Below are positions 1,736 to 53,900 of a DNA stretch of 64,000 bases, one piece after another. The number at the start of each line of letters is the position of its first letter. Position 1 is the stretch's first letter. Position numbers and translations under genes: made by a program. Origin of the DNA: Cyanidioschyzon merolae (taxonomy: Eukaryota); the NCBI GenBank assembly GCA_000091205.1, contig AP006498.2, one strand, 5' to 3'. The notes beneath the pieces are model-generated. The model was not told where the DNA came from. It saw only the letters and a list, made by a program, of their open reading frames with translations, and ran no database searches.

Positions 1736-3220
1736 ACATGGTCGTGGGACGTTTTTGTTCCACTGACAGGTGCGTTCGAGTTACATAGAACTGAACAGAT
1801 CCACGGACAAAGACGTATGCACTAATATTTCGGCTTCTTTAAACGACGCTGGTCTCTCCTTTCTCTCCGGCGCTGTTCATAGCAGTCGCACGATATTGGC
1901 GGTGGTGGTGTTCAGGCCCCGATTCCATAGCTGCCGACTCTTGTCTAGGCATTCCATGCACTGCCAAAAGTTGCCATCTTCGCTTCGCTTGCCATGTGCA
2001 CCTTCTCTCCACTCTGTTGCGGTGCGCCCGTCGCAGCGTTGCCGCTTGGCTGTGGTCTGGCGGTCACATGCCACCAGCATACTTCGTCATCTGACGGCTA
2101 GTCGCTGACACGTGAACGCTCGCGTCGACGCTCCGTAACTGTGTGTGGCGGGTCCAGAAGCCTCACCTCAGTGCCCTGCTCCGTTCTCGCACCAGCTGCC
2201 GTAACCTACGCTCACGGGCTTCTGCTGGGCGATCGCCTCGGCGAGAGCGCTCCCCGCAGCACACGCCTGCGCATGCTGCTCCCTTCTCTAGACGACTCGT
2301 CGAAGGCGATGCTCTCCAGACAGGAACAGGTACCGCAACGAACCTCCCAGGCCGGCGTGCACGTCGTGAACTCTCGATCTGTCTTCGCTCGCTTCGCGCA
2401 AAGCAGTGACGCACACTCTACTCAAAGTCATCGCAGCGATGAGTAAAGCCCGGGTCCAAGACCCCTTTCCATGCGCAGAGAAGAGACGGGCGCCTCTGAG
2501 CGCATGTTCCGGGAACTGCACCATACTGCCAATGAGTGCCGCTCCGTCGATAGCCCCACATAGAGGTGCCATTGCCTCTCAAGCGAAACTGCCTGTTCGC
2601 AGTGATAAGCTGCGTGACGTTTCAGCGAGAGTCTGTGAACGAGTCGTCACGGCCTCAACCCAGGTATTTTTCGTCGTTCATCCAGCGACGTGAAGTGCTG
2701 CACCCGAGTGTCGTCTTGAAGCAGAGGCATCGAACCTTGGCGCATGCGAGTGATTCGTGCACGCTACACTTAGGAATATGAGAAGCGCAGAGGCTTGTAC
2801 ACATGTCGTGGAAGAAGATGCCTTTTATGTGATGAATCCTTGCTCGTGGGTGCCGCGCATCATTCAAATGACGGTGACGTGACGAATGCGAGCGGCAGAG
2901 GGTCTACAAAGCAACTCCGGATGTGCGACCCTGATTCCTACAGCTACTTCCCAGTCCATGAGCCCGCACTGTTGCACTTTGCATCTACAGGCTGGAGATC
3001 TAAAACAATTGCGGAAAAATCTCAAGCCAGGAACTGCGCGAGCAGCTCTGTATTGCATTGATTCTAACACTGGCGCTGCATCAGGTGCCGCCGCTGTTTC
3101 TCTGCAAAGCTCTGCCGTGCGCTCTCTCTCGCTTTCTCTCTCTACAACCTCCTCTCCGCGCCCTTGGCCAAAACACGTGAACAGAGTGCTGGATGTCGAG
3201 CATAACGCCCCGTTGCGCAG

Positions 3221-13395: not shown

Positions 13396-14030
13396 TCAGT
13401 AGCTACGCTCTCGTGCCCATCTAGCTCCATTGTCAGCGGTCGATGGATGCCCATTGCAACGTGAAACTCCCGATTCCGCCGCTTCTGGTTGTATGCTATT
13501 CATGTCATGGACTGGAAAAAGGTTGCGGTCTACGCTTCGCTTGCTATTTCCATCTTCATCGCAACCAGCTTCGGTGCGTCTTTTGCAGCCGTGATACTTG
13601 GCTGTGGTCAGGTGTTCGCATATATCCACGATTTTTCCTCCTCCGGGAGCTGCTTACTTGCACATGAACGTTTGCTTCATCGCTCGGTTCATGCACTTGA
13701 CGGGTACAGCAGCCTCAACACAAGGCCCTGGTCCTTTTGCGCACCAGTACCCATATCCACTTATCACGAGCTTCTTCTGGGCAAGCCTTTTGGTGAGGTC
13801 CATATCTGCTGCATGCGCAAGGGTACGCTGTTCCATTCGATACAGAATTTGTGGAACGCGATTTTGTTCATGATGAAAAGAAAACCAGAAGGGATATTCA
13901 GACAGGCGAACAAGTCTAGACACTTAGATACGCCCATGCTGCTTTGGAGCAAAGCAGTGACACGCTCTCCGCTGGAAACCATCACCGCGATGATGGAGGT
14001 CCGAGTCCGATACCCTTTTCCATGAACACA
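13396..14030 (-). mobile_element. C-family relic (diverged TnpB-like remnant?)
   Basis: Minus ORF 13654-13923 reads ...ILYRMEQRTLAHAA...VPVKCMNRAMKQTFM, followed by Cys-rich CEHLTTAKYHGCKRRTEAGCDEDG (13396-13629). It is homologous to 22755-23111, 33278-33965, 43500-44110, 48100-48600 and 51335-51945. Confidence 0.45.
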
Positions 14031-14686
14031 GAAACGAAGGCAGCCTCTGGGAATGTATCCCGTGATATGTATCACGCTGCAGTGGAATCATATTTCTTGG
14101 ACGGCGACGATGAGAGGAAGTTTCTCTTTCGAACGGAGTCGATGATTGCACATGAGAAAATCAGGGAACTTTCTGCATGAACTTGTGGAGAAGCCTTCAT
14201 GGGCTGATGTCGAGCTTTTTCCCTCGTCAATCCACCGGCGTGAATCACGGCGCCTGCGAGTCCCTCTGAGGCAAAAACATTGAGATTTTGAAGAATGCAC
14301 GATCCGGCCATGCATCAGGGAAGGAAAAACAATGCGGAGCTCCTTGTACGCATGTCCTGGATAATTATATTGGTTATTTTACGAACCCGGTGTTCGACGG
14401 CATCGCGAATTATCCTGATGAAGATGCCGTGACGAATTCTAGCGCCAACGGGCCGAGGTAGTTTCTCAGAAAACGCGACCACGCATCCTAAACCTACGGA
14501 TGAATCGGCAAGCCCCAAGTGCTGCACTTCGAGTCTCGAACCTGCAGATATAAAAAACAGTTCGGAAAAATCGAAAGACAGGAATAGAACGAAAAAACTG
14601 TGTTCTATTTTAATCTGAAATTGGTGCAGCTCTTTTGAACGCCTGGACGGTCCCGAATACCTGTAGCGTGCCCAAAAGAAGCACTT

Positions 14687-21985: not shown

Positions 21986-22754
21986 CTATGGTCCTGGGAT
22001 ATTTTCTGTTTCACGGATCACATGTATACAGCGACTAGTTCAGATGCCGATCGGCGTCCTGTCCAACGCTAACTACACCAGTTCCAGGATAAAATGTGAC
22101 ATGGAACTATTCGCTCTGTTTCTGTCTTGCGATTTCAACCGAACTATTTTAGATGTCCAGGCTCTGCGTTCGTAGTCTGGCAATAAGCGCTTACGGATTC
22201 ATACGCAGTTTTTGGGATTTTCGGTCGACCATCCGCAGTGGCTCCATCGATGTCGTGGCGCTGGAATTCGTTACGCCACAGGATTCAAGATCATTCGCTA
22301 CGCCCTCGAACAGGGATTTGTAAAATAACCTGTATTATAATCCAATGGATAAGCAGAAGCCTTGACTCTTCTCTCCCAGTTGCGTACAGCATGCTCAAAT
22401 CAAAAGACTTTAGCATTTTTGGATCTTTCAGTGCCAATGGAACTCGTGAGTGCAGCAGTTCGCCCCACTGGATAAACGAGGAAAAGAGTGCAACGTTGTC
22501 GTCGACTATGGGCTTGTTCACAAACTCATATCAAATGCATACGGACATTTTCACGTCATAGATACGATTGCGTTCAAAAGAAATATCGTTTTCCCTTAAT
22601 GTCCATCGACGAGACGGGATTCGACAGCAGCATGAACGCGTTCAGAAAAAATCTGCCCCGAGAGCATCCGCCGCTTTTTATGTATGGGAAAGGACCAGGA
22701 ACCGGGACTTGAGTCGTCAAAGCGATTACATTCAGTGGATAGTTCGTCAGCGCT

Positions 22755-23330
22755 TTGCACGAAGGGCGCGAAGCCGGATCAAGATTTCACGATTACCTCT
22801 TTGACCTGAGTTTTAGTTTTTGGTACCGTTTTCGTCGTCGACGACAGCGCGTTCTAGTATCCCTCTATCAAATGGAGCAGCGTACGCTTATATATGCTGC
22901 GGAGAGAGTCCGCACCGAGGGGACCTCTTTGAGGAAAACGCGTGGTCATAGGATATCCGCTGGACGCATAAACGGGAACGAGCACCGTTCAGTGCCGTCT
23001 GTACCCGCCAAGGGCATGAACCGAGCGATAAAGCAAGCATTCATGCGCGACTGGGCGGCGCTTGGGGGAGAAGATCTAAAGGGTGCAGAGTTATACCTGA
23101 CCAGTATCTAGTGTAACCGCTGCGCGGGGCGCACAGAAACTGTATACAAAGAGAATGAAAATCACAAGCGAAGCGTAGATCGCAATGATCGTCTGTCAAA
23201 GAAGTACATCGACAGCATCCGAAAGCAGCGGAGTCAGATCCCTAAAGCTACCATCGACATCCTCCGACTGCTGGCAAGAGAACCGGAGGGAAAAAAGTGA
23301 CCAGCATATTCAAAGCCAGCACGTAAGGGA
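22755..23330 (+). mobile_element. C-family relic, plus orientation
   Basis: ORF 22755-23111 reads ...LYQMEQRTLIYAA...VPAKGMNRAIKQAFM. The downstream frame reads CNRCAGR...RSVDRNDR, a CxxC followed by a degenerate D-R-N stretch. Confidence 0.4.
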
Positions 23331-24109
23331 GAGGATAAGGAAGCAGATGCAGGAATTGCCGCCAGAGGCTGATTTTGGTGCTCATGGTAAGGGACGCAAG
23401 CTTTGCAGTGTACATACGTTTCAGGGGACACGCCCTGTTTTCTCTGACACTCTAGCGCACAACCTGAATATTGGGCGCGTACCGCCTGACGCCTATCGGT
23501 GGTTCACGCTTTCTCGAAGAGAGCAGCAGTGAGGCATGCAAGAAACCGCTCTAGCCTGATCTGCTCTGTACCCGTTCACGTTGATATTCGTAGAGTGCGG
23601 GCGTCAGCAGTGCAACACGACTCCACGAATGACTGGACTCGAAAGTATGCGCGGCAGCGATGGGGTTCATATCCCGATGATGCGCAGCGATGACTACTTC
23701 GGAAGTGTGTAGTTCCATCCATCGATCCGCTCGCTAGAAAATCCGATACTAGTTCAACTGCCGTGTGCGTAGCATTGCGAGCACCCTTGTGCCTGTCGAC
23801 AAAGTACTCTACTCTTCAGGACACTTTTCTTCATATTGAGGCCCGGAGCGCAAGCGTCCTCATCCTTCTCCTGTTTTACAGAAAAGCACCGCGCTTACTG
23901 CTTCGGCATGATCTCGAAATGGGTTCAGCAAAACGCCCCCTAGAGCGAAACATTTATCCGAGTACGCGTCTATGGAGACACGACGCCATCTGGGGTATCA
24001 CCGACGCGGTTTGGTAAACAAAAGCGTAGCCACTGCGGGCTACACGACCTGCACCTTGTTCTGAACGCGAACTCTTGGACGCGCATCAACTAACGCCGTA
24101 CATTGCCAG

Positions 24110-33016: not shown

Positions 33017-33277
33017 ATGAAGCTTTGGACGAGCTCACGAGTCGGTAGCTCGCATCCATGTATTCTGGCTTTCTCCGAGACTCTGAAAAGCTATGACACC
33101 CCCTTCACAATAGAAGAGGACACATCCTCCAACGCAGGCGTACAGAATACCATTTGTATCTCTTCAGATTTTCATCAAGATCAGCCTTTGTGCGCTGTTT
33201 CTGCGACTGCATTGATTTCCTCCCTCTTTTCTCCGGCTTTAAATAAGCAGCGCTTTCCTTCCCATCAAGTTCCGTTT

Positions 33278-33965
33278 TCAGCAGCTGGGGGATGCTGATG
33301 GACGCATGAATGTACAATAGGCACCGTTCACGGCTGGTGTCGACCCATCGGATGCACAGACCGAAGTTGCGATCCTCGCTTTGCGAACCATTTTCTTCTT
33401 CTTTGTATGTAGCCTCAATGCGCCGCTGGCAGTTGTGATACGTGGCCGCTGTTCAGTATTCTGATACGCCCACAGCATCTTCACCGCCAAGCACCACCCT
33501 GTGATGCATGAACGCCTGCGTCATCGCTCAGTACACAACCATGATGGGTATAGATGGCTGGCATCGACGCGCTCCTCCGTTCATGCGACTGCTACCACAC
33601 ACTACGATCATGGAGTTCTTCTGGGCAAACTGCTATACGTGGACGGTGCCCGCTATACGCGCCAGCGTGCGCTGTTCCACATGATGGAAGATTTCCCGAA
33701 AGATATGGTGACTATGATAAAACATGTTCCTGAAGGAATATCGAGACTCAGGGACAAATCTAGATTTTTCGATCCCACTACGCTCGCTTCGTGCAAAGCG
33801 GTGAAGCGCTTTCCATTGGTAGCGATCCCTGCGGTAAGTAAAATGCGATTCGAACACCCTTTCCCATACAGTCAGAACACAAGTGACTCGAGTCTCTGCG
33901 AGCATATCCAGTGCGAGGTATCAGGCTGTAGCTGGATACCGCTTTCGTTGATGTCCACAAAGTGA
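33278..33965 (-). mobile_element. C-family relic
   Basis: Minus ORF 33633-33905 reads ...HHVEQRTLARIAGT. 33290-33380 aligns at the DNA level with the RuvC-III-like 43520-43620 segment, but here it is degenerate (IHASISI versus FNAGINI). Confidence 0.4.
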
Positions 33966-35496
33966 GGAAGATTTGTATTTCGAATTGAATCGATTACTTC
34001 ATGAGACAATTTCAATCGAATTTCAACATTGGCGTGTGAAGCACTCGTCAAGGGACGCAGTGGAGTTTCTTTCTCGTCAATAAAATGCTAACCATCGATG
34101 CGCCCGGTGTTCACTTTGAAACGGAAAGATCTAGGACTAGAAAGAAGCGTAGTTGAAGCATGCTGCACGTAAGGAATCGAGAAGAGTAGATGCTTGAACG
34201 TATAAACTGGATAAAGGTATCTTTTATTTTTATCAAACCTTCTTGAAGAATGTCGTGAATCAAATGCATTCCTGCGATGTATCGAATACCAGCGCGAAAA
34301 AGAATCGAAAGCGCCACTCCAGAAAGTCTCCTGAAAATCCTGAAACTCTACTCATGAGTCCGTGAAACCGTATTCGTGCAATTTAAATTTCGATGATGTG
34401 TATCAAGAAAATTTAGCACATTTTCTCAAGCCAGGCACAGAGCGAGCAGTTCGGTGTTCCATATTAGTCTGACACAGATGCAGGACACCGTTCTGCATCT
34501 GCGCTCGCAGTGCACGCATTCGTCGAATCCGAGGTCATCGATGCAACAAAAGTATCATTTCTCTGCTTTGGTGCACATGGTGATCGTTCAGGATGATGAA
34601 GATCTGTATGTCTATGCCATCGAAGCGGCAAAAGTAGCATTCTTCTGTTTTGATGCTCTCGGTGATCGTTCAGCTTCCCAGAAGTCTATACTCCGAGACC
34701 ATCGACGCGGCCAACGTCTCACTACTCTTCCACAGTGGACAGGGTTATTCATCAGCTTCCTGGAGATGCACATGGCAAGTGTACTGCAGCGGTGAACCGA
34801 TCATCCCTGTTCCTTGGTGCAAAGCGGGGTCATTAAGGTTCCGTCAGACGCATATCCAGAGGAAGCGGCGGTGGCGGGACAGTCGCCAAGCACGCTGTCG
34901 GAGCGACCAACAGAGACGCACACAGAACGACAGCTGCTTTTGCGTTCGTAAGCACCATGGATGCAAATGCATCCAAAACCGCATGCGTCGTGGACGTGGT
35001 ACCACGCATCCCGTGTACTGTGTTCGTGCCCCAGAGGATGCTGTGCAGTAGTCTACCTGGACTGCCACAAAGAGGTGCGCACCACGTTCCTGTTCACTGC
35101 AAGAGCTCAGCTGTAGAAGTGCCTATGCGCCTCAGGGCAAACGTTTTTTCCAGAGGTCGCTGGGTTTTCTGGTCTCGGTGGAATGCTCGTGCATCTTACA
35201 TAGTCTGTACGCAACACGCATTCAACTGTTCGCGAACGTTCGACGCTACACAATAGATGTACACTTCATGCGCAATGCCGTATACTCAGGTTTTTTTTTG
35301 TGCCGGCAAATCTTACCAGGGCCGCTGCAGTTCCCCTCAGAGCGTCCCGCGACACGCTCATACGTGACCTTGACCGCCGACGTCGCTGCGTGAGCGTTTT
35401 CGTGCCATTGAGAGCGTGCGTCTCTGTCTGCGGCTAGACTTGTGAACTGCGCTGCGGACAACAACAGCCCCATGACTTTATGTACAGATTGTATGC

Positions 35497-41500: not shown

Positions 41501-43437
41501 GTCTGGTTCTTCTTACAAGAGGTGAGCGTATCGAAGAAGACCTCCGCCTATCTACCTGCCTGTCTGCCAAACAAATATTGACGGAACCCAACCGCTTTCC
41601 AAACCAGGCGTGCCACAAGTCTAACAGTACTCTTCGGGCAAGTTTCCAGGTTTTGGCGCCACATCCTACGCGCTTCCGCAGGGTGCGTTTCATTCAATGC
41701 CGGTACACGGCTGCAGGCTTTCGTCGTACAGGCGGAGCTGCGTTCCCTTACTCCTCCACTTTGGAAACAACCTCTGCGTTATCAGAGAGAAAGGCTTGAA
41801 CTGCTGTGTCCTTGACGTTCATCGCGATGTTCGTTTATTTGCAGAGTTTCAGTTCTGCTCGCATGAGGCCAGTTGCAATATGCAAGGCACAATAGTGTCG
41901 GACTTGTACACTTTGTCGTTAATTATGCAGCACTGCAGGCAGGAACTCTCGCGAGAATAGTTAATGGGAGGGGGGTTGGAACTGTGAAGTGCCTCAACAC
42001 GGCATGTGCCGGTGACTCGGTTTGTCATGTTCTTCAGCAACCAGGTAGGCAGCCTCTGGGAGTCATTTTGTGCCGCTGCAAAAGAACCACCTTGCACCAG
42101 GGAAAACGTTCTTGTTTCCGTGAAACAAAAATAGGCGAATCTTAGGACAAAAGTAAAGATCGGTCTCTGTGATATAAAATCAGCCTCCGAGTTACCTGCG
42201 AGGAATGTGGAACTCGTGGAAAACAGCGGTCCTTTATGAGTGAAAGCCGTTGCATTCCACATGCAACGCTTTTCCGGTAGCGAATTCGGGTCCAGGTACC
42301 TCAATGTACATCATCGACTTGTAATTAATCAGACAGCGCTGTGGCGGCCACGTAGGATGGTAGATGCGTGCGCTCCTGTCCAGGCACGAAACTGTCAGCG
42401 CTCGCCTCTGTCTCCACGCCAGCTCACGGATGGTGCGATACCATGCTACGACTTGCATGAGATTCATGCACTGAAGAAGAGAAGCATGAGACAAGTCAAT
42501 TCGTAGTGGCATGCAGGCACAGACTCGTTCTATCACAAGCCAATGTTCCCTGTGCTGAAGCGTTCTTCAGGAGAATCAAAGTATGCCACCGCGCTACCCT
42601 GAGCGTTTTGGCTCCGTGCCTGTTCTGCCGCCTTCACCAAGCCGGGGCTCGAATCATTTCGATATCCTTCGGATGCTTGCTAGTGCGTTACGGGCATTTC
42701 CAGAGCACCGATGCGAAGCTGACTTCTGCTCCAGTGCCTCGGCATTGAAGTCTGTGCTCGCATGCGTTGACGAAGAATACACGGCGCGTTCGAAACTGAC
42801 GCGCCGTTTCCGGCCAATATCCCAGACGGACAGAGCTCTTCGCGGAGTCATTACTCTGGTGAACGCCACGCAACGCAGCTATCATGCGCCCGAAGACGGG
42901 ATTCGACCGTACCCAAGAGCGCCCCTGCCCAAGTGCGGCACACATCTCGTAAATGGATCCCATGTGATGGCCTCTTGTAGCGAAACTGCTACCGGATACG
43001 TTATCCGAGGCGAAACCTCGGCAAATGCCAAGATACACCGGCGTTTGCGACCAGTTCAACTGTCCCGGAGTGTGACTGCAAATCTTCGTAGAATATAGAG
43101 ATTCCCATCGCAACATATCTTTGTCTGGGCGGAAACGTTTGCAAAGTAGTTCTCCACGGAGCGACTCTTGGTGGGCGTTTCCCGCCACGGAGCGCAAACT
43201 GGCCCCTTGGGTGCGGCTTCCTGATGGCACTGTAGCTGCGCGACATGTGTGTGCGAACGAGTCGTTCCTGGGTACTATGATGTACGGAAACATGACAGTA
43301 ATGATTGCTTTCCCTGCATGGGGCCTCTTCGTGTTGTCGGCTCGCTTTCTGTGGCCCAGGGCTCTGCTAATTTGATGTCTGACGAAAATGGAAATCGTCC
43401 AATAAACTAACTCGGACGTACATGCGAAATTTTTGGA

Positions 43438-44780
43438 TCTTTCCGCAGTCATCAACACCAGCCTTGGCGGATTCTCTGTGACTGCTTCCATTAGATTTCT
43501 CGTAGCTACGACTTTAAATACGCCGGTCGATCACCTCCCTCAAGATCTGTCGTCAGAGCTCGACGGATATTGATGCCAGCATTAAAGTCCCGATTTCGCC
43601 GTCTCAGGCTGGTGCCAACGCATGCCATGCCCAGGCAAAAGTTGCGATCTTCGCTTTGTCTGCCATCTCCATTTTCTCTCCAGAGCAGCATCGATACGCC
43701 CTTCGCAGCAGCGACTCTTGGTAATGGTCACGCTTTTCCTGTTTGTCCAATACGCTTCCTCCTCTGAGCGCCGCCCTGTGGCGCGTGAACGCTTGCCCCA
43801 ACGCTCACAGCACATGCACGTGCTGGGTACAGAACCATCCCGCAAGTGCCGTCCTCCATCCACGCGCCCGGTACCGTACCCTGTGATCGACAGCTTATTC
43901 CGGGTAAGTCTGCGGCAGGTGCTCTGCCCGCTGAACACGAAAGCGCACGCCACTCTATTCGACAAAGGATTTGTGGATCGCGATGTTGTTCACGATGAAA
44001 CAAGTTCCGGACGGGAAACCCGCAGCAGCCAGAAGACTGAGGAGCTTCGAACAATCCACGCTACACTGGTGCAACGCGGTGACGCACTCTGCGCTGGGGG
44101 CGAGCGCTGACGTCAGTGCGAGTCCAAGACACTTCTCCGTGCAAGCAGAAGCGCTGGAGCCTCCGAGAGCCTCCGAGAGCCTCCGAAAGCCTCCGAGAGC
44201 CTCCGAAAGCCTCCGAGAGCATACCCCCAAGAGAGATATCGTGCTGTTGTCGAACCCTATTTCGTGGATGGCCACACAGAGTAGAGAATAACTCCTTCGG
44301 ACGGAATAGATCGTTCGGCGTTCGCAGTCCAGTCCGGAATCGGCACAAGCTCGCGAAGGAGTCCTCAAGGGAAGGCGTCGAGTTTTTTGGTCGCCAGTCC
44401 ATCAGAGCAGATTCCTACGCGCTCGGGTAGCCTCGAAACCAGAGAACTCTAAAAATTGAAGAATGCGTCATTTGAGCATATTACTCGTAAGGAAGGAGTA
44501 TGAGTGGCGTCTTCTGCGTATGAATTGGATGATGGTATCGGTTATTTTACGAACCCTTTTACGGGGACGTCGCGAATGACCGTGACTCTGGGGATGAAAC
44601 GCAGTCCAGCGGGAACGAGTCGAAGGGGTCATTCCGGAAAGACCACCGATGATCCTGGAGTTATATGAAAATCCCAAACCGATTGCTGCACTTTGCATGC
44701 CGAGGACGTGCAGCTAAAAGAATTTCGGGAGAATTGCAAGGCAGGAAGAGAGCGAAGAGTTCAGTGTTTCATTTGAATCT
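43438..44780. repeat. 1.3-kb direct repeat, copy A (composite of F-like RuvC-III fragment, C-family relic and minisatellite)
   Basis: Near-identical to 51274-52575, with only a handful of substitutions plus extra minisatellite units. Identical ORFs appear in both copies: 43506-43691 = 51341-51526, 43622-44110 = 51457-51945, 43582-43965 = 51417-51800. Confidence 0.85.
44157..44220 (+). repeat. 10-bp minisatellite (GCCTCCGAGA/GCCTCCGAAA), about 6 units
   Basis: gagcctccgagagcctccgagagcctccgaaagcctccgagagcctccgaaagcctccgagagc. The paralogous position 51995-52018 has only 2 units. Confidence 0.8.
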
Positions 44781-44868
44781 GGCTCGGCTGTTGTGCACTC
44801 GTCCAGAGGAGGCACCGAAATGCCTCGGAGAACGCTCGCACTGCACTCATCTTAAGGGACTCGTGGCA

Positions 44869-46935
44869 ATGGACTTCAAAGACTTGGTTGCTCTCCGTTG
44901 TGAACTTTCTGTGCAGAGTCTGACAGAAGTTTCGGCTGCACTCCGCCGCGTGATTCTGAGCAAGTCCTACTACGAGTATCAGGTAACTAGAGCGCCCCTG
45001 CGGAGTTTCCTCAACAACGGACCGCTATGGATTTTCCAGACTCTGAGCGGTGCAGGCAGCCTATGGGTATCAAACTTTTACGACACTTGCCGGGATCTCA
45101 TCGCGTCGGGAACGAGACCGGCAACAGGCACTTCCAGTTCTGCGGCGGGCGGCGCGCCAGCGAGGGCCTCACCGACCAGGGCGAGCGATAAAACAGAAAA
45201 GAAAAAGGCTCGGAGGCTGCTGGAGCTATGTCAGGCCGCACAGCCACCGGGGCTTCGCTCTTTGTGTGAACTAGAAAGGGCCCGATGCCAGGCTGCTGTG
45301 CATGCTCTCGGCCGTCTCGAGCGAGCCTTAGCAGTGTATCTTGGAAGGGCCCAGGAGGAGCTTTCTCGTCTACGAAGTTTAGTCGAGAAAGATCCTCAAA
45401 ATAGTTCTGAGTTGCGGGCACTCTTTCTCTCTTGCGACGAATTGCATCACCGTACACTAACAGCGCTGGAAGCAACCGATGTGGATGCTATCGAGGAGGC
45501 TGTTTACGCCCACTTGTTGGTCGATTCTGACGTTCTGGCTGATCTGGATCGCTGGGCTTCTATAATGAAAGAGGATGCAGAACGATTCATTACGCTCCTG
45601 CGCGATGTTCCGCGTAGATGGAACGTCTATTTGACTCTGGAAGAGCTCAGTCGCATCATGCCTGCGGCAGGACGTCAGTCCGGAAAGCGCCGCGGTCTGG
45701 GCTTCATCGAGCGATTGCAAAGGGTTTCGCTCATTTACCCATCGCACTTTGCGAGAAACTGGATACGCTACCTGTGCGGTACCCTGACCATCTTCTGGTC
45801 CTGGACGAAAATCAGCGCACATCGCGAGCATGTGATGCATATCGCACTGAGCGTACGTCAGGTTGTGAGAGGCTTCTGGGACGAGCGCATTATTACCCCG
45901 CTCACCATGATCTACAGGGAAATCTTTCAATCGTCGTATCGAACATTCATGGATCCGAAGGCGGTTCAGGCTGAGAAAGAGACCTTGAAGCGCATGGTTG
46001 TGGATTTTACCCGGGAGGCCTATGCGCGCCTCCCGGACGACCAGCGACAGGAAGCTGAACTTCTGGCTGCAAATGGTGATCTCACACCGGTCATGAAAGT
46101 CTACGAACGCCAGATTCGCAGCCCTGTGGTGAATATGCTTGCTGGTGACGTGATCAGAGCATTACTCATACAAGTCCAGAAACTCAAAGTTGATGTCGAG
46201 CAGGAGATGGTCGCTGTAGACTCCTTGGTTCGTTCGAACGAGCTCAATCTCCAGATCGCTGCTGCCGTTCCAGGCGTTCTTGGATGTTGCCTAGCGGTCG
46301 CGCTCCTGTACCGCTGGTTCAGGCGTTGGTGGTCGAGTATTCGCCTCACTGAAGTAGATCGTTTCGGAGGTGGCGGATATCTCTGGGCCAACGCCTTCGC
46401 CGAGAAGCTTCCCACCCGTGAGCGGGCCCGCCTCTTGCTACGAGATATCGAACGCTATCTGGTGTTGACGCTTTCGCTACGCGGCCCTGAAGCAGCTTCT
46501 GCGAGGCTTCAAGAGACGCCTCTGCTCCAGAAAGCACAAGTGCTCAACGGGAGAGCGCCGGCTTCGTTGGCGTCCGCTTCTCCGGAACGTGTGCAACGAG
46601 TATCAGATCGAACGCTCGCGACGTTCTTCCCTGGCGGTCTCGCTCAGGGTGAAACTGGCGAGAACCTCAAAAGCAGTGAAAATAGTGTGATTTTTCTCTC
46701 GACGGCTTGCATTGCTGAGTACGAAGACAAAGGACGTATTCTTCTCACCCTGGACGAACTGGAGGCCATGGTAACGAGCCGCGCTGGAGAGTTTGGGATC
46801 AGCCGCGGCTCTCAGCTGGAGACTCGCCTACGTGAAGATCTTTTGGACCTGAGATCATTCGCTCTCGACGCTGAACAAAAACTGCTCACAATCCTTCGAA
46901 TGCGCTCTACATATCCCTTTTTATGGGATCGCTAG
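44869..46935 (+). CDS. conserved hypothetical protein with one predicted TM helix (AAVPGVLGCCLAVALLYRWF)
   Basis: The 756-aa ORF 44665-46935 has its first 34 codons inside the 1.3-kb repeat (they are shared with ORF 52460-52675). The start was therefore placed at the Met of MDFKDLVALRCELS (44869). No family motif was recognised with confidence. A vague NCA2-like resemblance is unverified. Confidence 0.45.
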   Translation: MDFKDLVALRCELSVQSLTEVSAALRRVILSKSYYEYQVTRAPLRSFLNNGPLWIFQTLSGAGSLWVSNFYDTCRDLIASGTRPATGTSSSAAGGAPARASPTRASDKTEKKKARRLLELCQAAQPPGLRSLCELERARCQAAVHALGRLERALAVYLGRAQEELSRLRSLVEKDPQNSSELRALFLSCDELHHRTLTALEATDVDAIEEAVYAHLLVDSDVLADLDRWASIMKEDAERFITLLRDVPRRWNVYLTLEELSRIMPAAGRQSGKRRGLGFIERLQRVSLIYPSHFARNWIRYLCGTLTIFWSWTKISAHREHVMHIALSVRQVVRGFWDERIITPLTMIYREIFQSSYRTFMDPKAVQAEKETLKRMVVDFTREAYARLPDDQRQEAELLAANGDLTPVMKVYERQIRSPVVNMLAGDVIRALLIQVQKLKVDVEQEMVAVDSLVRSNELNLQIAAAVPGVLGCCLAVALLYRWFRRWWSSIRLTEVDRFGGGGYLWANAFAEKLPTRERARLLLRDIERYLVLTLSLRGPEAASARLQETPLLQKAQVLNGRAPASLASASPERVQRVSDRTLATFFPGGLAQGETGENLKSSENSVIFLSTACIAEYEDKGRILLTLDELEAMVTSRAGEFGISRGSQLETRLREDLLDLRSFALDAEQKLLTILRMRSTYPFLWDR

Positions 46936-46989
46936 CAGCTGTGCTACCGTATTGTTCCCTGCGATCCTGCACGTTATGCGCTCATCCAG

Positions 46990-47110
46990 TGCCCTGCGAC
47001 CGCTTGCCACTGAGTGCTTCTGTATGTTTTCACTCTGTACCTGCAATTCGTGCGCTCTGCCAAGCCTCTGTTATCGCTCGCCACTGAGTGCTCCTGTACG
47101 TTTTCACTTG
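46990..47110 (+). repeat. About 57-bp tandem repeat x2 just downstream of the 44869-46935 gene
   Basis: cgcttgccactgagtgcttctgtatgttttcactctgtacctgca and cgctcgccactgagtgctcctgtacgttttcacttggagcctgca. Confidence 0.5.
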
Positions 47111-48099
47111 GAGCCTGCATCTGATGCGCTCATCTCATCCATAGCGCATTGGTGAAAGACAAAGTCCTTTCTCAGAGGTATTTTTAAAAAGGCTCTTACG
47201 GATGAAAACTGTTCGTATGTGCACCGCAGTGGTGCCCATCGTTTTTTTTTTCGAGTCGGAAAGTGCTCTCGCTCTATCGCCTACCCCACCGGAACTAATA
47301 CTGCATACATCGTTGTCTCCAAAAGAAACGTTCCAGCGCTTGCCACGCAGTCTGTTGTACGTATTTCGTACAAGTGATGCATCGCGTCAACGATGGCACT
47401 CTGCCAGACTGCATTTCGTCGTTTCCAGGGCCTAGCACCCAGGGTCCGTTGAAGTGGGTCGCTGTTCGTCGCATGCAGCACGCAACCGGCATCGAAGAGA
47501 GTCACTGGAAACTACTCGAGGAGCAGTGCCTGCCTCTCGCTGCTAGATCCATTTACAGCTGTCGCAACTTGTTATGGCCATAATGTCCATGGAAACCGAA
47601 AAGCTACGGTAGGCAAGTAATATGTAACTGCATCGAATGCAGTGGTTGCAGCACCTCCATCGTAGCAGCAGTCAAACGATCATGGCGCTGCTCCTTTGGC
47701 GCATAACGCATAACGCGCGGGCGCATAGACTTGCATCTGTGTTGCCATCAATGCTCGTTTATTCCGTCGGGATTTCGAAGCGCCCACGATCGCAGTGGGA
47801 GGAGTACGAAACATGTGAAAGCACCAGATGCCGAATCAATCTCCCGTCCTCGAATTTGCACATGAAACCGTGGGATTCGTGCGTCTCCACAAGCCCTGGC
47901 TAATTTAAGATGCGCTTCTTGAGACATTTTTGATTGTGTGCCGTCTAACGCCAGCGTGGGCAACGTGAACGAGCCTCCAAGCTAGGACGCGACATTTTTG
48001 TCTTCTACACACATGCGAACATACATGGGAAAGGGTCTCGTACCGCTGGCGTACGCTCTAAAGATTGGGTCTCTCCCCATTGTAATCAACATGAGCCTT

Positions 48100-48600
48100 T
48101 GGGGGCTTCTCAGCGATTGTTTCCGCTTCCTCTCTCCTGTCCACGCCATTCGGTACACTAGTCGCTACAGTTCCGTTATCAGCTGTTGGAAGATGTGGAT
48201 GGCAGTGACAAAGACCCGATTTCGCTCCTTCTCGCTGTTGTCGACGAATGCAGTGCAGAGGCGGCAGTTACAACCTGCGCTTCTGTTGCTATTTTCAATT
48301 TTTTTGTTTACAGCCTCGGTTCGCCCTTCGCAGCAGTGGTACTTGACTGCCGTCACGTGTTCTCGTACGTCCATCTCACTTTTACCTCGAGCACCGCCTT
48401 GTGGTGCGTGACGGTTGCTTCATCACTCAGAACATGCCGTGGGCTGGTACGGAGGACTCCCCATAATGTCCTTCTCCGTTTCCGCACCTGGTCCCGTACC
48501 TAACGATTACGGACTCCTTCTGGGCGGTACAAACGGCGAGTGCTCTGTTCCCTGCACATGCGAGCGCATCCTGTTCCATTCGATAGTTGATGTTTAGAAA
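48100..48600 (-). mobile_element. C-family relic
   Basis: Plus ORFs 48186-48503 and 48415-48597 share H.R..HRSVH..DGY...LLGK...LFH-type frames with the other C copies. Minus ORF 48165-48374 is Cys-rich (KYHCCEGRTEA...SAGCNCRLC). Confidence 0.4.
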
Positions 48601-49406
48601 GAGACGTTGTCCATAATGAACCGAGTGAAGGAAAAATATTTCAGGCCGGAGATCAAGTCGGGATACTTAGATCCGTCTACGCCCTCGGCATGGGAAACGG
48701 TGACTCACGCTCCACTGGAAGCGATCGCTGGAATGCCTCGATTCCCAGTCCAGGAACTTTTCCATGGAAACAGAAAAGACGGGAATCGCTGGATCCGCAA
48801 TCGGTGAGAGGTTCATGCTGCTGCCGAATCCTGTATTTCGGATAGCCTGAAAGAGAGAAGGATTTACCTTTCGAACAGAGTCGATCATTAAATGTGACAA
48901 GTTAAGCGAAATTTCAGCATGAACTTCTTAACAAGGCCCTGATGGACGTTGTCGAGTTTTTCTCTCGCCAATCTAGCTATGCGAAGGGTTGCGACAACAA
49001 AGTTGCCTTCAAACAGCAATATGGAAAACTTGAGGAACGCATGATTTGAGCATGGAACACCTAGTGACTTGGGAAGATTGGAGGCTTGCGCGTGTGAACT
49101 GGATAATGATATCGTCTATTTTACGACCCGCCGTTCGAAGGCGTTGCGAATCATCTTAATTCGTGTGAAGTTACGAATTCCAGCAGCAAATAGTCGAAGA
49201 CGCCATTCCGAAGACACAACCGAGAATTCTAAAATCTACATATGAACCAGTAAGTCCTCACAGCTGTACTTTAAAATGTCGATGCTTAACGTCTAAAAAC
49301 AAGTGCGAATAAAAGTCGAAGTGCAGGAACATTGCGAGTAGTCCAGCGTTCCATTTTTAATCTGACGCAGTTGTGGAGGGACAATGAATCCCGGAGCGAC
49401 TTTGCC

Positions 49407-50189
49407 ATGCCAGAGCTGCCAGCAGTTGAGCGGGCTCGTCGTATGATCGATGCCTTATGTAAGAGCTATAGACGGATAAACGTTCAATCCGCACCCGATC
49501 CGAAACATGCCTCTGAGTTTGTGGACAAGCTTTTCGAAGGCAGGCTGGGGCTGGACCTGCTCGAGCGACGTGTCTGCGTAGGTCATGTGCTGCGGCAACT
49601 TGGCCGTCACGGCAAGAACCTGTGGTTTGAGTTCGACGAACCTCCCCACGTTTTCGTCCGCTTTCGAATGGCTGGCTCTTTCGTGGTTCGTGGTCACGAA
49701 GACGGCTACGTTTATGAGACTTTTCGCCGACGTACTGCCGCCTGTCGGTTCCACGACTCAGGAACGCCCCTCGTCTCAGTCTGGCCACCGAAGCATACAC
49801 ACATTGTTTTTAGTTTTGCTCCCTGCTCCCCAGGAGTAGATTCTGCCAGTATAAACGGTATCTCTGTCCGAGAGTTCGCGCTGGTCGACCCGCGAAAGGT
49901 TACGAGGATGCGCCTCAGCGACTCGTCGTGTCCTTCTGTCGAGATTCGAAGCCTCATAGGAGGCTTCGATGCGCTGCATGCGCTCCCTCCTATTGAGCGC
50001 TTCGAAAGGAAAATGTTAGTGTACCCGAAAGCGAATATCAAATCGTTGCTTTTGGGCCAGCGCTTCATCGCTGGGCTCGACAATTGGATGGTCGACGAAG
50101 TTCTTTATTACGCTCATATTCACCCGGAGAGTCGCACTTGTGACCTCACTCGTATCGATGTTGCAGCATTGCATCAGAGCATCGCATAA
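49407..50189 (+). CDS. formamidopyrimidine-DNA glycosylase (Fpg/Nei family), zinc-finger-less type
   Basis: The N-terminal MPELPAVERARRMI matches the catalytic P2/E3 PELPEVE motif (set as start, inside ORF 49332-50189). The H2TH region is KANIKSLLLGQRFIAGLDNWMVDEVLYYAHIHPESRTCDLT. Confidence 0.7.
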   Translation: MPELPAVERARRMIDALCKSYRRINVQSAPDPKHASEFVDKLFEGRLGLDLLERRVCVGHVLRQLGRHGKNLWFEFDEPPHVFVRFRMAGSFVVRGHEDGYVYETFRRRTAACRFHDSGTPLVSVWPPKHTHIVFSFAPCSPGVDSASINGISVREFALVDPRKVTRMRLSDSSCPSVEIRSLIGGFDALHALPPIERFERKMLVYPKANIKSLLLGQRFIAGLDNWMVDEVLYYAHIHPESRTCDLTRIDVAALHQSIA

Positions 50190-50513
50190 GTTGTGCGAAG
50201 CTCGTGTGATGCAAACGCAGACTTGGCCCTTTTCCCCTAAGACTGGCTCTTTCATATCCGGTGGCAAGGAGCAGCGAAAAGGAGACGCGGCCGCGACATG
50301 CATCAAGTCGTTATTACAGCAGACGGGAAAAGCAAATTTCATTCATGCTAGCGGACGTACAGCGGTATATGTACCCTCTCTGCAAAGAAAACGTGGCCAT
50401 GCCCGAAAGGTTTGCCACACAGACGCCGGCGCATAACAGTTGAAAACGTTAAAGTGTCTTCTCTTGCTGACTCGGACGAGCTTGCGTATTTCAAGTGAAG
50501 GACTTTTCACGCT

Positions 50514-51191
50514 TTGATGCCTCGCATAAAGCACGCTTCAACGAGCGACGGAAGGAGCAAGACGGTGACAACGCATGGCAAAGGAGGCTCTTCCACAGTG
50601 CGCTCGAGCAGAGCCTCCGCACGCGCCGGCACTGATGCACCTCGAAGCCTGGCCCGCACTGGGGGCGCGCAAGACCACAACTTGCGGCGTTGCAGCAGCG
50701 AATCAACAGAGGCTCTCTCTGATTCGGACACGAGCTGGAAGCGAAGCGACGCAGAGAGCGCGGACGAGACCAGTGGGGAGCACGACCGGTCAGCCACGCG
50801 GAAGCGTAAGCAAACCCAAGTTAGCGGAAGCGCAGTGAACGGCAAGAGAGCTGTTCGCGGAAATGGCGTAAGAGAGCTTGAACAGCCCACTGCAGCTGCC
50901 GCAACCGTGAAAACAGAGGCAGCTTCTCTGAAAAAAAAGCCCGCTGACAGTGCGAAAAAGTTGAAAGCATCGGAGGTCACCTTCGTTTTCGATGAACTTC
51001 GCAATGATCAACGTTTTATTACACCTCGCCAGCTCATGAGGGCAATCATGTGTCAAATGGGGCAACAAGAGGCTGAACAAATGACTGACAGCGACATCAC
51101 AGCGATGATTAGACTAGCCGACACCAACGGAGACAACAGAATCGACAGAGAGGAGTTTGAGAATTTTGTACAGAGAGAAATCCGTCTCTGA
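50514..51191 (+). CDS. EF-hand calcium-binding protein with Ser/Arg-rich low-complexity N-terminus
   Basis: The C-terminal canonical EF-hand loop is DTNGDNRIDREEF, preceded by a non-canonical partner helix-loop (FVFDELRNDQRFITPRQLMRAIM). Confidence 0.6.
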   Translation: MMPRIKHASTSDGRSKTVTTHGKGGSSTVRSSRASARAGTDAPRSLARTGGAQDHNLRRCSSESTEALSDSDTSWKRSDAESADETSGEHDRSATRKRKQTQVSGSAVNGKRAVRGNGVRELEQPTAAAATVKTEAASLKKKPADSAKKLKASEVTFVFDELRNDQRFITPRQLMRAIMCQMGQQEAEQMTDSDITAMIRLADTNGDNRIDREEFENFVQREIRL

Positions 51192-51273
51192 ATATACCAC
51201 TAAACCTATGCTCCATAAGTATGAAACGAGTCCTATCTGGACAATTCTGGTTTGCATATTCAAGTTTCTGTCC

Positions 51274-52575
51274 CTTTCCGCAGTCATCAACACCAGCCTT
51301 GGCGGATTCTCTGTGACTGCTTCCATTAGATTTCTCGTAGCTACGACTTTAAATACGCCGGTCGATCACCTCCCTCAAGATCTGTCGTCAGAGCTCGACG
51401 GATATTGATGCCAGCATTAAAGTCCCGATTTCGCCGTCTCAGGCTGGTGCCAACGCATGCCATGCCCAGGCAAAAGTTGCGATCTTCGCTTTGTCTGCCA
51501 TCTCCATTTTCTCTCCAGAGCAGCATCGATACGCCCTTCGCAGCAGCGACTCTTGGTAATGGTCACGCTTTTCCTGTTTGTCCAATACGCTTCCTCCTCT
51601 GAGCGCCGCCCTGTGGCGCGTGAACGCTTGCCCCAACGCTCACAGCACATGCACGTGCTGGGTACAGAACCATCCCGCAAGTGCCGTCCTCCATCCACGC
51701 GCCCGGTACCGTACCCTGTGATCGACAGCTTATTCCGGGTAAGTCTGCGGCAGGTGCTCTGCCCGCTGAACACGAAAGCGCACGCCACTCTATTCGACAA
51801 AGGATTTGTGGATCGCGATGTTGTTCACGATGAAACAAGTTCCGGACGGGAAACCCGCAGCAGCCAGAAGACTGAGGAGCTTCGAACAATCCACGCTACA
51901 CTGGTGCAACGCGGTGACGCACTCTGCGCTGGGGGCGAGCGCTGACGTCAGTGCGAGTCCAAAACACTTCTCCGTGCAAGCAGAAGCGCTGGAGCCTCCG
52001 AGAGCCTCCGAGAGCATACCCCCAAGAGAGATATCGTGCTGTTGTCGAACCCTATTTCGTGGATGGCCACACAGAGTAGAGAATAACTCCTTCGGACGGA
52101 ATAGATCGTTCGGCGTTCGCAGTCCAGTCCGGAATCGGCACAAGCTCGCGAAGGAGTCCTCAAGGGAAGGCGTCGAGTTTTTTGGTCGCCAGTCCATCAG
52201 AGCAGATTCCTGCGCGCTCGGGTAGCCTCGAAACCAGAGAACTCTAAAAATTGAAGAATGCGTCATTTGAGCATATTACTCGTAAGGAAGGAGTATGAGT
52301 GGCGTCTTCTGCGTATGAATTGGATGATGGTATCGGTTATTTTACGAACCCTTTTACGGGGACGTCGCGAATGACCGTGACTCCGGGGATGAAACGCAGT
52401 CCAGCGGGAACGAGTCGAAGGGGTCATTCCGGAAAGACCACCGATGATCCTGGAGTTATATGAAAATCCCAAACCGATTGCTGCACTTTGCATGCCGAGG
52501 ACGTGCAGCTAAAAGAATTTCGGGAGAATTGCAAGGCAGGAAGAGAGCGAAGAGTTCAGTGTTTCGTTTCAGTCT
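51274..52575. repeat. 1.3-kb direct repeat, copy B
   Basis: See copy A (43438-44780). The differences include gcaggattcctacgcgc versus gcagattcctgcgcgc and fewer minisatellite units. Confidence 0.85.
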
Positions 52576-52804
52576 GAAGGTTGTAAAGTGCGATTGGTCA
52601 ACGATACTTGCACTGCCCATCAAGAGAGTTTTACGGATCATCGTTTCCCCACCGCTGCCAAAAATTTGCAACTAAGCATTGCGAGCTGGATCATGTTCTA
52701 CATCGTGTAAAATCGATCCGCACTTGTCCAACAGAGGCATTCGTCCGTGCCCCTGAACGAAAGCCTCGCCTGGAATTCTCAACGTGAAGGTTCTCCCGTC
52801 CGTG

Positions 52805-53650
52805 TTAAAACACGTTTGGAATGAAAGCCTTCACTCGCGCGGCATACTCTTCATACTCTTTGCCGAAGCGCTCAATAAGATATTTCTCCTCTTCAGTTGC
52901 TTTGCGAGTGAAGAAGTAAAACAGCGCTAACGTTAAAACTAAACGTTCCGGAGAATGCGAAACCGTTGAAAATCCAAAACTGGTCAGAACTATCCCAGTA
53001 TAGATCGGATGCCGCATGAGGCCGTACAAGCCGTCAGTTTTCAGAGCGGCGCTCGCCGGCGGCTTCACCCAAGGCACAAAATTCTCAGGACCGAGCTCTC
53101 GGATAGCCTGCACGACAACGTATATGCCCAGGAAAAGAGGCACAGGCCCCATAAGGAAACCGAAGACGGGATCAAGTGCTCCTGGATCGCGCAAAATCAG
53201 TAGTATGAGAGCAAGTTGTATAACAACGTAAGTCTCACCGCGATTGAACCATTCGCCGGCCACCGTGTTGTCTAAGACTCTTTTCCAGTATGCAGCTGAA
53301 TCACGAGAAAACTTTTCCACGTCGAAATTAGCTATTTTCTTCGAAATTGCTTCGGGTATTTTCTCGATGCTTTCCAATACCTTTTGCAGTTTCTCTCCCA
53401 GTTCAACAGTTACAGACTCGTTTGCTGGAGTCGCATCTACAATTTCAGGTGCGCTTTTACTCGCTTTAGGCGCTTCGTCGACCTTCCGCATCAGCAGCGT
53501 TGCTCGCTGTGCACGCGAACTTGGAGTACAAGCCAAACCAGTCCTCCCGGAGTGCCGGCGGCTCGTTGATCGCCCCCACAGTGGCGAGAGCGTTTCACGA
53601 CACAGTGCCGCTGGCACAAAGGCAAGCTCATCTCCCGCAAGAAAAGTCAT
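52805..53650 (-). CDS. ICMT/PEMT-family integral-membrane methyltransferase
   Basis: The C-terminal DGLYGLMRHPIYTGIVLTSFGF...EEEKYLIERFGKEYEEYAARVKAFIP carries the RHPxY and EE..L...FG..Y..Y signatures. The start was placed at Met-61 of ORF 52805-53830, because the first 25 codons overlap a tandem repeat. Confidence 0.7.
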   Translation of the reverse strand: MTFLAGDELAFVPAALCRETLSPLWGRSTSRRHSGRTGLACTPSSRAQRATLLMRKVDEAPKASKSAPEIVDATPANESVTVELGEKLQKVLESIEKIPEAISKKIANFDVEKFSRDSAAYWKRVLDNTVAGEWFNRGETYVVIQLALILLILRDPGALDPVFGFLMGPVPLFLGIYVVVQAIRELGPENFVPWVKPPASAALKTDGLYGLMRHPIYTGIVLTSFGFSTVSHSPERLVLTLALFYFFTRKATEEEKYLIERFGKEYEEYAARVKAFIPNVF

Positions 53651-53756
53651 TTGTGGCTGTACTCTGCGTCGCGAACGTTCTCTCTCGGGCTCTTTGTACA
53701 GGCGTGACACCCGCACGTTCTGTCGACGCCGCAAATACGCGCCATACATTGTCATA

Positions 53757-53900
53757 CACTTCATGCGATCGACATGGACAAGGCGTCCGTGGCACTCCAT
53801 TGGTGCAGGTATGTCTGTAAATGTACACAACTAGCGATACGCATCATGCGAGCGACACGGACAGGGCGCCCGTGGCAGCACATTGGTGTATAAATGTCTA
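53757..53900 (+). repeat. About 72-bp tandem repeat x2 in the divergent intergenic region between the methyltransferase gene and eL31
   Basis: catgcgatcgacatggacaaggcgtccgtggcactccattggtgcaggtatgtctgtaaatgtacac and catgcgagcgacacggacagggcgcccgtggcagcacattggtgtataaatgtctaataaggtacac. Confidence 0.6.

Follow-up and report, generated by a model that had tools for sequence, protein, structure and literature searches.

How can two direct repeats of about 1.3 kb, lying 7.8 kb apart on nuclear chromosome 16 of Cyanidioschyzon merolae 10D, be nearly identical: through very recent duplication, or through gene conversion between older copies? The 64-kb window, i.e., the whole stretch of DNA that was analysed, extends from CMP166C to L31 and contains the repeats at 43439-44781 (copy 1, c5) and 51274-52576 (copy 2, c7), as determined by blastn of the window against itself and by global alignment (Table 1). 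A sequence-only reading of this DNA had described two such repeats of more than 99% identity; they are real, with the earlier coordinates one base off. The copies, 1,343 bp and 1,303 bp long, start 7,835 bp apart, are separated by 6,492 bp, and share 99.5% identity when a 40-bp length difference in the 10-bp minisatellite GAGCCTCCGA, of which c7 has four units fewer, is left aside. Three substitutions lie in the interior (44128, 44417, and 44589) and a further three in the last 11 bp (44771, 44775, and 44777), which amounts to six substitutions and a 40-bp indel, in agreement with the few substitutions and the altered minisatellite length noted before. The left edge of the pair is sharp, and the right edge is frayed across these 11 bp. 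The minisatellite numbers 2 to 6 copies across strains and is missing in the other five copies of the family described below.

Table 1. Features of the locus, in coordinates of the 64-kb window
Feature	Position	Strand	Basis or remark
c1, old family copy	1806..3066	+	nhmmer, identity, termini
c2, old family copy	13289..14617	+	nhmmer, identity, termini
c3, old family copy, the sole inverted one	22086..23422	-	nhmmer, identity, termini
c4, old family copy	33131..34471	+	nhmmer, identity, termini
CMP168C, annotated hypothetical gene	42688..43491	-	first 18 codons within repeat
c5, full family element with old termini outside identical tract	43377..44793	+	profile from c2, c3, c4, and c6 only; left-terminus PWM 11.8-12.4 bits
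c5, proposed homogenised tract	43439..44770 (to 44781 with frayed 11-bp right edge)	+	99.5% identity to 51274-52565; locus-specific differences from 44771 on
c5, degraded C-terminal Fanzor/TnpB-like part (RuvC-II, zinc ribbon, RuvC-III)	43473..44004	-	in-frame stops; RuvC-II Glu and first CxxC lost
Minisatellite GAGCCTCCGA in c5	44157..44220	+	10-bp unit, 6.4 copies
NCA2-like CMP169C (BAM81800.1, 688 aa)	44869..46935	+	Pfam PF08637, E=2.5e-51; annotated start outside repeat
c6, third copy, inside bracketed block, orientation as c5/c7	48071..49364	+	61% identical to c5/c7; ends 43 bp before Fpg start codon
Formamidopyrimidine-DNA glycosylase (Fpg) CMP170C (BAM81801.1)	49407..50189	+	Pfam, annotation
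EF-hand protein CMP171C (BAM81802.1)	50517..51191	+	Pfam, annotation
c7, full family element with diverged termini of its own (51243-51273 and 52566-52589)	51243..52589	+	profile alignment 51246-52579
c7, proposed homogenised tract	51274..52565 (to 52576 with frayed right edge)	+	blastn, global alignment, strain comparison
c7, counterpart degraded Fanzor/TnpB-like relic	51308..51839	-	as c5
Minisatellite GAGCCTCCGA in c7	51992..52015	+	2.4 copies
ICMT/PEMT-like methyltransferase, right of c7	52805..53800	-	BAM81803.1 is the shorter annotated version

Repeats of ~1.3 kb are a classic origin of mis-joins, and the second copy might have been born of a mis-assembly of the reference. No support for such an artefact was found: the 10D copies differ as listed above, the 10D genome sequence is described as finished from telomere to telomere (PMC1955436), and independent metagenome contigs from different samples traverse each copy and reach unique sequence on either side of it, namely L001, L003, L013, and L014 for copy 1 and the same four together with L027, L028, L029, and L030 for copy 2. 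The artefact, with a probability next to nil, is effectively refuted.

The pair belongs to a dispersed family. With c5 as the query, nhmmer detected seven full-length, co-linear copies (E from 1e-72 to 0), whose ends lie 1-12 bp off those of the identical pair and which make up ~14% of the window. The entire 1.3 kb is one unit of this single family and not, as had been thought, a mosaic of several. The presence of the unit at many sites had been named as grounds for regarding the pair as simply another dispersed repeat; five more copies do occur in the window, but these are only 55-62% identical pairwise, so the 99.5% pair stays a special case inside the family. Further young copies were sought in metagenome contigs by exact look-up of a 61-aa ORF and by a 26-mer scan, both of which returned c5 and c7 contexts only. 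The weak period-3 signal in the substitution pattern of the old copies suggests that they diverged mostly as non-coding DNA. No consistent extension of family homology was found in the 2.5-kb flanks, nor any sign that the unit arose from a longer element by internal deletion, and ARAGORN detected no tRNA near the repeats. The same flanks hold another repeat family of ~500 bp, whose positions and orientations vary.

Judging by sequence comparison, the family represents relics of a degraded TnpB/Fanzor nuclease gene on the minus strand. In this orientation, the 433 codons of the family majority consensus include 6 stops, compared with 9-16 for the remaining five frames, and the consensus matches Pfam PF07282 (Cas12f1-like TNB) with 27.6 bits against a cut-off of 26.3 (E=3.3e-6). 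Consensus residues 255-409 are 51% identical to P0045, an intact metagenomic protein of 682 aa (156 aa, E=3e-41), and residues 123-410 are co-linear with residues 197-513 of P0044. The profile search detects residues 245-419 only, and the alignment of residues 123-180 with the LDPGRVNLY region of P0044 is co-linear with few identities and no conserved RuvC-I Asp, which in such elements is expected 125-275 residues upstream. The consensus contains the [TS][TS]-x-x-[C4 zinc finger]-x(5,50)-RD signature of Bao & Jurka for the RuvC-II/III region (VVDVWEHLTTAKCHRCEG...CLCMAC...RNRDFNAAINIL), of which c5 and c7 retain ...CLGMAC...RNRDFNAGINI only; the RNRDFNAGINI motif confirms the minus-strand RuvC-III-like fragment recognised previously (43506-43691). 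The ORFs of c5 itself gave no meaningful Pfam match, as expected of a decayed copy, and the signal appeared only after the family consensus was built. PDB sequence searches with P0045 and a five-protein profile gave no match, so no link is made to experimentally characterised Fanzors. Long ORFs are absent from all seven copies, and the minus-strand frame across 43473-44453 contains 5 stops in 327 codons. With these stops and the loss of catalytic and zinc-binding residues, the relics are dead, and the homogeneity of c5 and c7 would thus be a by-product of recombination and not a sign of function.

Fanzor/TnpB-like elements are known from C. merolae (PMC1955436, PMC3627910). Bao & Jurka in 2013 described the Fanzor1 element CMe-1A (PMC3627910), and Nozaki et al. 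in 2007 reported a 'novel interspersed repetitive element' with a truncated ORF resembling WSSV WSV486 (PMC1955436); the two are presumably one and the same. Like CMe-1A, the present family is old, degenerate, and dispersed in the intergenic DNA of C. merolae, has a TnpB/Fanzor-like ORF with a [TS][TS]xxC zinc ribbon and an RD motif, and is without terminal inverted repeats (searched in 40000-56000); CMe-1A is also without recognisable target site duplications. However, the published element is ~3-3.2 kb long and present in 150-253 copies, each ~80% identical to the consensus, whereas the present family forms a discrete unit of 1.3 kb comprising the C-terminal 290-430 codons only, is more diverged (55-62% pairwise), and is far denser locally (7 copies per 64 kb), the comparison being made with the published descriptions of CMe-1A and TE-N2_CMe. 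It may be either a truncated sub-family of CMe-1A or a family of its own.

The age of the pair can be read from the sequence that borders the identical tract. When c5 and c7 are left out of the profile, its alignment runs 28 bp past the tract on the left side of c7. The left terminus of c7 scores 8.2 bits in register with the PWM, a value that the genuine copy c3 also obtains in a leave-one-out test and that is attained at ~4 unrelated positions per 128,000, while its right terminus gives P=2e-4 and is unlike c5 at 44771, 44775, and 44777 across all examined strains. This evidence, drawn from short segments (31 nt on the left, 24 nt on the right) and a five-sequence profile, indicates that c7 has old, diverged termini of its own on both sides of the tract, which argues that it is not a fresh insertion but an old copy that was overwritten or kept from diverging, contrary to the proposed very recent duplication. 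Recent transposition or copy-and-insert duplication, by which c7 would have come fresh from c5 or the reverse, between CMP171C and the ICMT-like gene and shortly before the sampled strains diverged, is therefore unlikely. It would account for an identical tract that takes in nearly the whole family unit and ends within about 10-60 bp of the family ends, and mobilisation in trans is conceivable since some Fanzor1 elements of C. merolae are still intact (Bao & Jurka, PMC3627910). Nevertheless, apart from the termini, no third young copy was found in the metagenome contigs and no terminal inverted repeats in 40000-56000, the relic is unable to encode anything, and duplication alone cannot yield the parallel strain-specific substitutions described below. 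The flanking motifs common to all seven copies could formally also be a conserved target, in which case the mobile unit would be the 1.33-kb tract only, inserted site-specifically into a repeated sequence of ~30-60 bp, and the 'old termini' would be target sites. We regard this as very unlikely, as no unoccupied target was found in the window, where the strong left-terminal PWM matches all adjoin family copies and the rest are at noise level, and the metagenome contigs contain no other young insertions. Moreover, ~35 bp separate the end of the Fanzor frame from the left edge of the tract, and, judging from TnpB organisation, the right end of the element would be expected in the adjoining 30-60 bp.

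The option of ongoing gene conversion receives direct support from the comparison of 10D with related strains. At 43737, 43875, 43883, and 44038 both 10D copies carry T, C, G, and T, whereas 13 out of 13 metagenome-derived sequences carry C, G, A, and A, and relative to L001 five of the nine differing sites are common to both paralogues (44650 being the extra shared site). The tract is discrete, its identity dropping abruptly while the older homology goes on beyond. Such parallel fixed differences in both paralogues indicate, at the sequence level, concerted evolution by gene conversion. In metagenome contigs with both copies the interiors are always identical; many contigs break ~122 bp into the repeat, a pattern typical of de Bruijn graph collapse, and this identity was dropped as proof of within-strain identity. 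Since short-read assemblers may collapse the repeat, robust evidence is confined to those positions at which 10D stands apart from every other assembly.

We therefore consider it probable that c5 and c7 are old members of a Fanzor-relic family at long-held sites, the interiors of which were homogenised by gene conversion. The non-autonomous ~1.3-kb relics would have settled at their present sites long ago, each keeping diverged element ends (left, 30-60 bp; right, about 12-24 bp), whereas the interiors (43439-44770 and 51274-52565) would have been homogenised by conversion between direct copies 7.8 kb apart, a process that seems to have gone on after 10D split from related natural strains. Double-strand-break repair or meiotic conversion with the neighbouring copy as template could be the route. 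Conversion may have acted since both copies were young, in which case the pair never diverged and homology was eroded from the ends towards the interior; alternatively, one old copy may have been overwritten later. At ~60% identity, two sequences should be too dissimilar for canonical homologous recombination to begin between them. Late overwriting would need an unusual event, e.g., microhomology-primed templated repair, and with family relatives ~40% diverged the start of conversion is hard to explain unless it has been running since both copies were young. Continuous conversion, on the other hand, leaves unexplained how c6, situated between c5 and c7 and oriented as they are, was spared.

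Concerted evolution by gene conversion is exemplified by bacterial tuf duplicates, Y-chromosome palindrome arms, LTR pairs, and segmental duplications. The c5/c7 pair shares with them the sharp-edged tract of near identity between two neighbouring homologous sequences, substitutions common to the paralogues within a lineage and differing between lineages, and the ability of direct repeats to mediate deletion, but differs in consisting of dead transposon relics without evident function. In bacterial TnpB homing, a DNA break induces copying of the transposon back into the emptied donor site. Double-strand-break repair templated on another element copy would be common to both systems; however, the relics here are catalytically dead with no sign of an active nuclease or guide RNA, and homing restores the element at its own site without homogenising two paralogous sites. 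There is a slender chance that an active Fanzor encoded elsewhere, guided by RNA from the conserved 3' end of the family, cuts at or next to the relics and drives break-induced copying between neighbours and occasional deletion of the genes between them; if true, RNA-guided cleavage would be shaping the DNA between the genes of a minimal eukaryote.

Selection on a functional element, e.g., an NCA2-like promoter/5' leader or a non-coding RNA, could also keep c5 and c7 alike. Only 88 bp separate the end of c5 from the start codon of the NCA2-like gene downstream, and 43 bp separate c6 from that of Fpg, so the relics supply upstream regions of host genes, and the interspersed elements are transcribed according to Nozaki et al. 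(PMC1955436). Nevertheless, the genes on either side of c7 converge on it, leaving a promoter there without an obvious gene to serve, and no Rfam family was detected in 42000-54500 (E<=1). The drift of the other five copies to ~58% identity shows that the family as a whole is not under sequence constraint, and selection does not make sharp identity boundaries or parallel substitutions. Such a function is highly improbable.

The suggestion that the pair is a substrate for non-allelic recombination is plausible. The metagenome contigs L004 and L007 carry exactly the predicted deletion junction, but both may be chimeric. In L007 one flank resembles one strain type and the other flank another, and the reciprocal junction is absent in the 8 contigs crossing copy 2 from the EF-hand gene. 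A real hot-spring allele without NCA2, Fpg, and the EF-hand gene is possible, albeit doubtful.

The finding is ordinary, both the kind of repeat and the process being known already, and the understanding of such repeats in general is unchanged. The intergenic DNA here is largely made up of old Fanzor relics, although the C. merolae genome is known for almost no transposons, and the published repeat figures may be too low for such relic sequence, at least in this region. The c5/c7 pair provides a small, clean example of concerted evolution and a candidate marker for ectopic recombination in C. merolae, an alga in which gene targeting makes use of homologous recombination and for which a sexual cycle was recently reported.

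Of the three host genes placed in the bracketed block, Fpg and the EF-hand protein stand, while the hypothetical membrane protein is the NCA2-like CMP169C, and the block includes the third family copy c6. A place for the MKIPNRLL... codons in a host gene is not supported: they lie in sequence homologous to all family copies, and the annotated NCA2 start at 44869 is outside the repeat. What look like 'duplicated gene starts' within the repeat are transposon-derived sequence. For CMP168C, direct 10D protein look-up returned nothing and cluster relatives were used. It differs from strain L001 by 7 nonsynonymous and 1 synonymous changes, with a nucleotide divergence of 1.0% versus ~0.4% locally, and is probably not a real gene.

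The near-identical pair c5 and c7 (copies 1 and 2) is a new case of known things, namely the Fanzor-derived dispersed repeats of C. merolae and the concerted evolution of neighbouring repeats. Self-comparison of the window and global alignment bear out two highly identical direct repeats (43439-44781 and 51274-52576). Three substitutions in the interior and another three within the final 11 bp separate them, as do four repeat units of the 10-bp minisatellite GAGCCTCCGA, and the left edge of their identity is sharp. The second copy, flagged earlier as a potential assembly artefact, is not a mis-assembly of the reference, since metagenome contigs from several independent samples, 98.6-99.6% identical to the window, span each copy with unique sequence on either side. 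Among the seven family copies, expansion of GAGCCTCCGA is confined to c5 and c7; its copy number ranges from 2 to 6 across the two 10D copies and the strain contigs, a variation that may be of use in telling strains apart.

The sequence-only reading described the repeat as a mosaic. In a translated search of the window, copy 1 matched co-linearly in all frames at five further places, and nhmmer recovered seven full-length copies, whose ends fall within a few bases of the ends of the identical pair. Identity of the old copies (c1-c4 and c6) among themselves and with c5/c7 is 55-62%, with 12-21 small indels and approximately 700-800 inferred substitutions per pair; at ~40% divergence, lengths in the c2-c6 family alignment are nearly constant, 1,294-1,312 bp without the minisatellite. 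Co-linearity, coinciding ends and near-constant length thus identify the unit as a single family rather than a mosaic of several. The indel to substitution ratio in the family, near 1:45, is low for DNA that decays neutrally. Spaced ~10 kb apart, with six of seven in a common orientation, the copies make up ~14% of the window, much denser than the published C. merolae figures of 0.7% for transposons and ~5% for a 3.2-kb interspersed element. One of them, c6, lies within the bracketed gene block in the orientation of c5 and c7.

Positions of repeats and genes in the window and of the single-repeat junctions in metagenome contigs
Feature	Position	nhmmer match	Strand	Details
c1	1806-3066	1826-3064
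c2	13289-14617	13320-14617
c3	22086-23422	22086-23388	inverted
c4	33131-34471	33160-34471
c5 (copy 1)	43377-44793
c6	48042-49364	48071-49364
c7 (copy 2)	51243-52589
Minisatellite GAGCCTCCGA	44157-44220 (c5); 51992-52015 (c7)			10-bp unit
Rod-linker gene BAM81797.1	38229-39464			exact protein look-up
CMP167C	40517-41500			exact protein look-up
CMP168C	42688-43491		minus	annotated hypothetical gene; exact protein look-up
NCA2-like gene BAM81800.1	44869-46935			exact protein look-up, Pfam
Fpg gene BAM81801.1	49407-50189			exact protein look-up, Pfam
EF-hand CMP171C	50517-51191			exact protein look-up, Pfam
~500-bp family	1257-1763; 4673-4880; 11154-11666; 21523-22014			68-86% identity
Inverted pair	3729-4497 / 29954-30719			82% identity
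Further dispersed pairs	20511-21565 / 61541-62583; 54-653 / 27895-28504; 27398-27843 / 63198-63647
Tandem repeat, 74-bp unit	46955-47134			2.1 copies
Tandem repeat, 83-bp unit	53754-53911			1.9 copies
Repeat in L004	8444-9766 (contig)			11 kb; JGI 3300050364, Ga0506591_000067
Repeat in L007	1249-2561 (contig)			3.8 kb; JGI 3300050366, Ga0506594_002314

The minus strand of the majority consensus has 6 stops in 433 codons (9-16 in the remaining five frames), carries VVDVWEHLTTAKCHRCEG...CLCMAC...RNRDFNAAINIL and exceeds the Pfam cut-off of PF07282, the Cas12f1-like TNB (TnpB zinc-ribbon) domain. Intact metagenomic proteins of 551-756 aa, retrieved by a database search, share 51% identity with the consensus over their C-terminal 155 residues, and one of them, P0044, is co-linear with the consensus from residue 123 on. 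A profile of these proteins matches only consensus residues 245-419, so where the rightmost 400-700 bp come from is uncertain. The reading frames of c5 and c7 contain stops and have lost the RuvC-II glutamate and the first CxxC; both copies are dead as Fanzor/TnpB genes. A Fanzor-derived family fits the published C. merolae elements: Nozaki et al. 2007 (PMC1955436) reported 253 copies of the 3.2-kb element, ~5% of the genome, with a truncated ORF similar to WSSV WSV486, and Bao & Jurka 2013 (PMC3627910) classed an element of ~150 copies as Fanzor1 (CMe-1A), with ~80% identity to its consensus, no TIRs and undetermined TSDs. Going by the published description, the 1.3-kb family may be a shortened sub-family of CMe-1A or a family in its own right.

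Whether c7 is a fresh copy or a homogenised old one can be read from its termini. A profile built from c2, c3, c4 and c6 only, with c5/c7 excluded, aligns over 43377-44793 in c5 and 51246-52579 in c7, exceeding the identical tract leftward in both copies. With a position weight matrix for the 31 nt that adjoin the tract on its left, from c1-c4 and c6, the c7 flank 51243-51273 scores 8.2 bits in register. The genuine copy c3 has this same score when left out of the matrix, and only ~4 of 128,000 positions in the window reach it without being related. The right end of c7 (GTTTCAGTCTGA..., where c5 has ATTTGAATCTGG...) is likewise family-like (P=2e-4), and the three right-end differences between c5 and c7 are constant across every strain. 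Having diverged family termini on both sides, outside the identical tract, c7 carries its own old ends, which argues against the recent duplication proposed previously; it is best read as an ancient insertion, the interior of which has come to match c5. Neither the exact 61-aa ORF of the repeat nor a 26-mer from its middle turned up outside the c5 and c7 contexts in the public assemblies that were searched, and nothing there points to recent activity of a sub-family.

Ongoing gene conversion, the other origin put forward, is supported by a strain alignment of both 10D copies with 13 metagenome-contig sequences. At sites 43737, 43875, 43883 and 44038 the two 10D copies agree on T, C, G and T, where all 13 contig sequences read C, G, A and A, and five of the nine sites differing between 10D and contig L001 are common to both paralogues. 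Such sites point to conversion because independently evolving copies would share essentially none. The interiors are identical in every metagenome contig with both copies, and many contigs end ~122 bp into the repeat, which suggests that assemblers collapse it; we therefore counted as evidence only those sites at which the metagenome calls are unanimous and the finished 10D sequence departs from them. Conversion between neighbours that are 99% identical is unremarkable, but the first homogenisation is harder to explain, as identity within the family is now only ~60%. Most simply, exchange between c5 and c7 would have gone on from the time when both were young, and homology would have eroded from their ends inward, since conversion tracts would seldom extend that far. 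This leaves the escape of c6 from homogenisation unexplained; alternatively, a copy may have been overwritten later through microhomology-primed templated repair.

The pair was rightly seen as a substrate for recombination. Two metagenome contigs, L004 and L007, are without the NCA2-like, Fpg and EF-hand genes and carry a single-repeat junction from the ICMT-like/L31 side to CMP168C, precisely the deletion predicted from unequal recombination. The reciprocal junction was seen in none of the eight contigs spanning copy 2 from the EF-hand gene, and the flanks of L007 resemble two different strain types. Both contigs were assembled from short reads of mixed populations, so that a natural deletion allele is no more likely than an assembly chimera across the repeat.

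Exact protein look-ups placed the genes and assigned the window to nuclear chromosome 16 of C. merolae 10D. Pfam agreed with them for NCA2, Fpg and EF-hand; beyond the EF-hand gene lie an ICMT-like gene and then ribosomal protein L31. Given the position of the NCA2-like gene, the duplicated "gene start" formerly assigned to the repeat was wrong. CMP168C, which has no Pfam match, starts within the relic c5, shows 7-8 nonsynonymous changes and one synonymous change against two related strains, and is probably a spurious ORF call. In some related strains the Fpg call has 277 aa rather than 260 aa (window 49332-50189), its upstream in-frame extension running into the right end of the relic c6. Tandem repeats directly follow the NCA2-like gene (74-bp unit) and occupy the 5' end of the ICMT-like gene (83-bp unit).

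A second dispersed family, of ~500 bp, bears a RuvC-III-like NRDFNAAINI-type motif (tblastn matches 4708-4737 and 11484-11543) and may be TE-N2_CMe or a CMe-1A-related family of Bao & Jurka. Further dispersed pairs, one of them inverted, are present. The copy at 29.9-30.6 kb weakly matches intact Fanzor-like proteins in their central and C-terminal portions and may thus belong to a longer Fanzor element.
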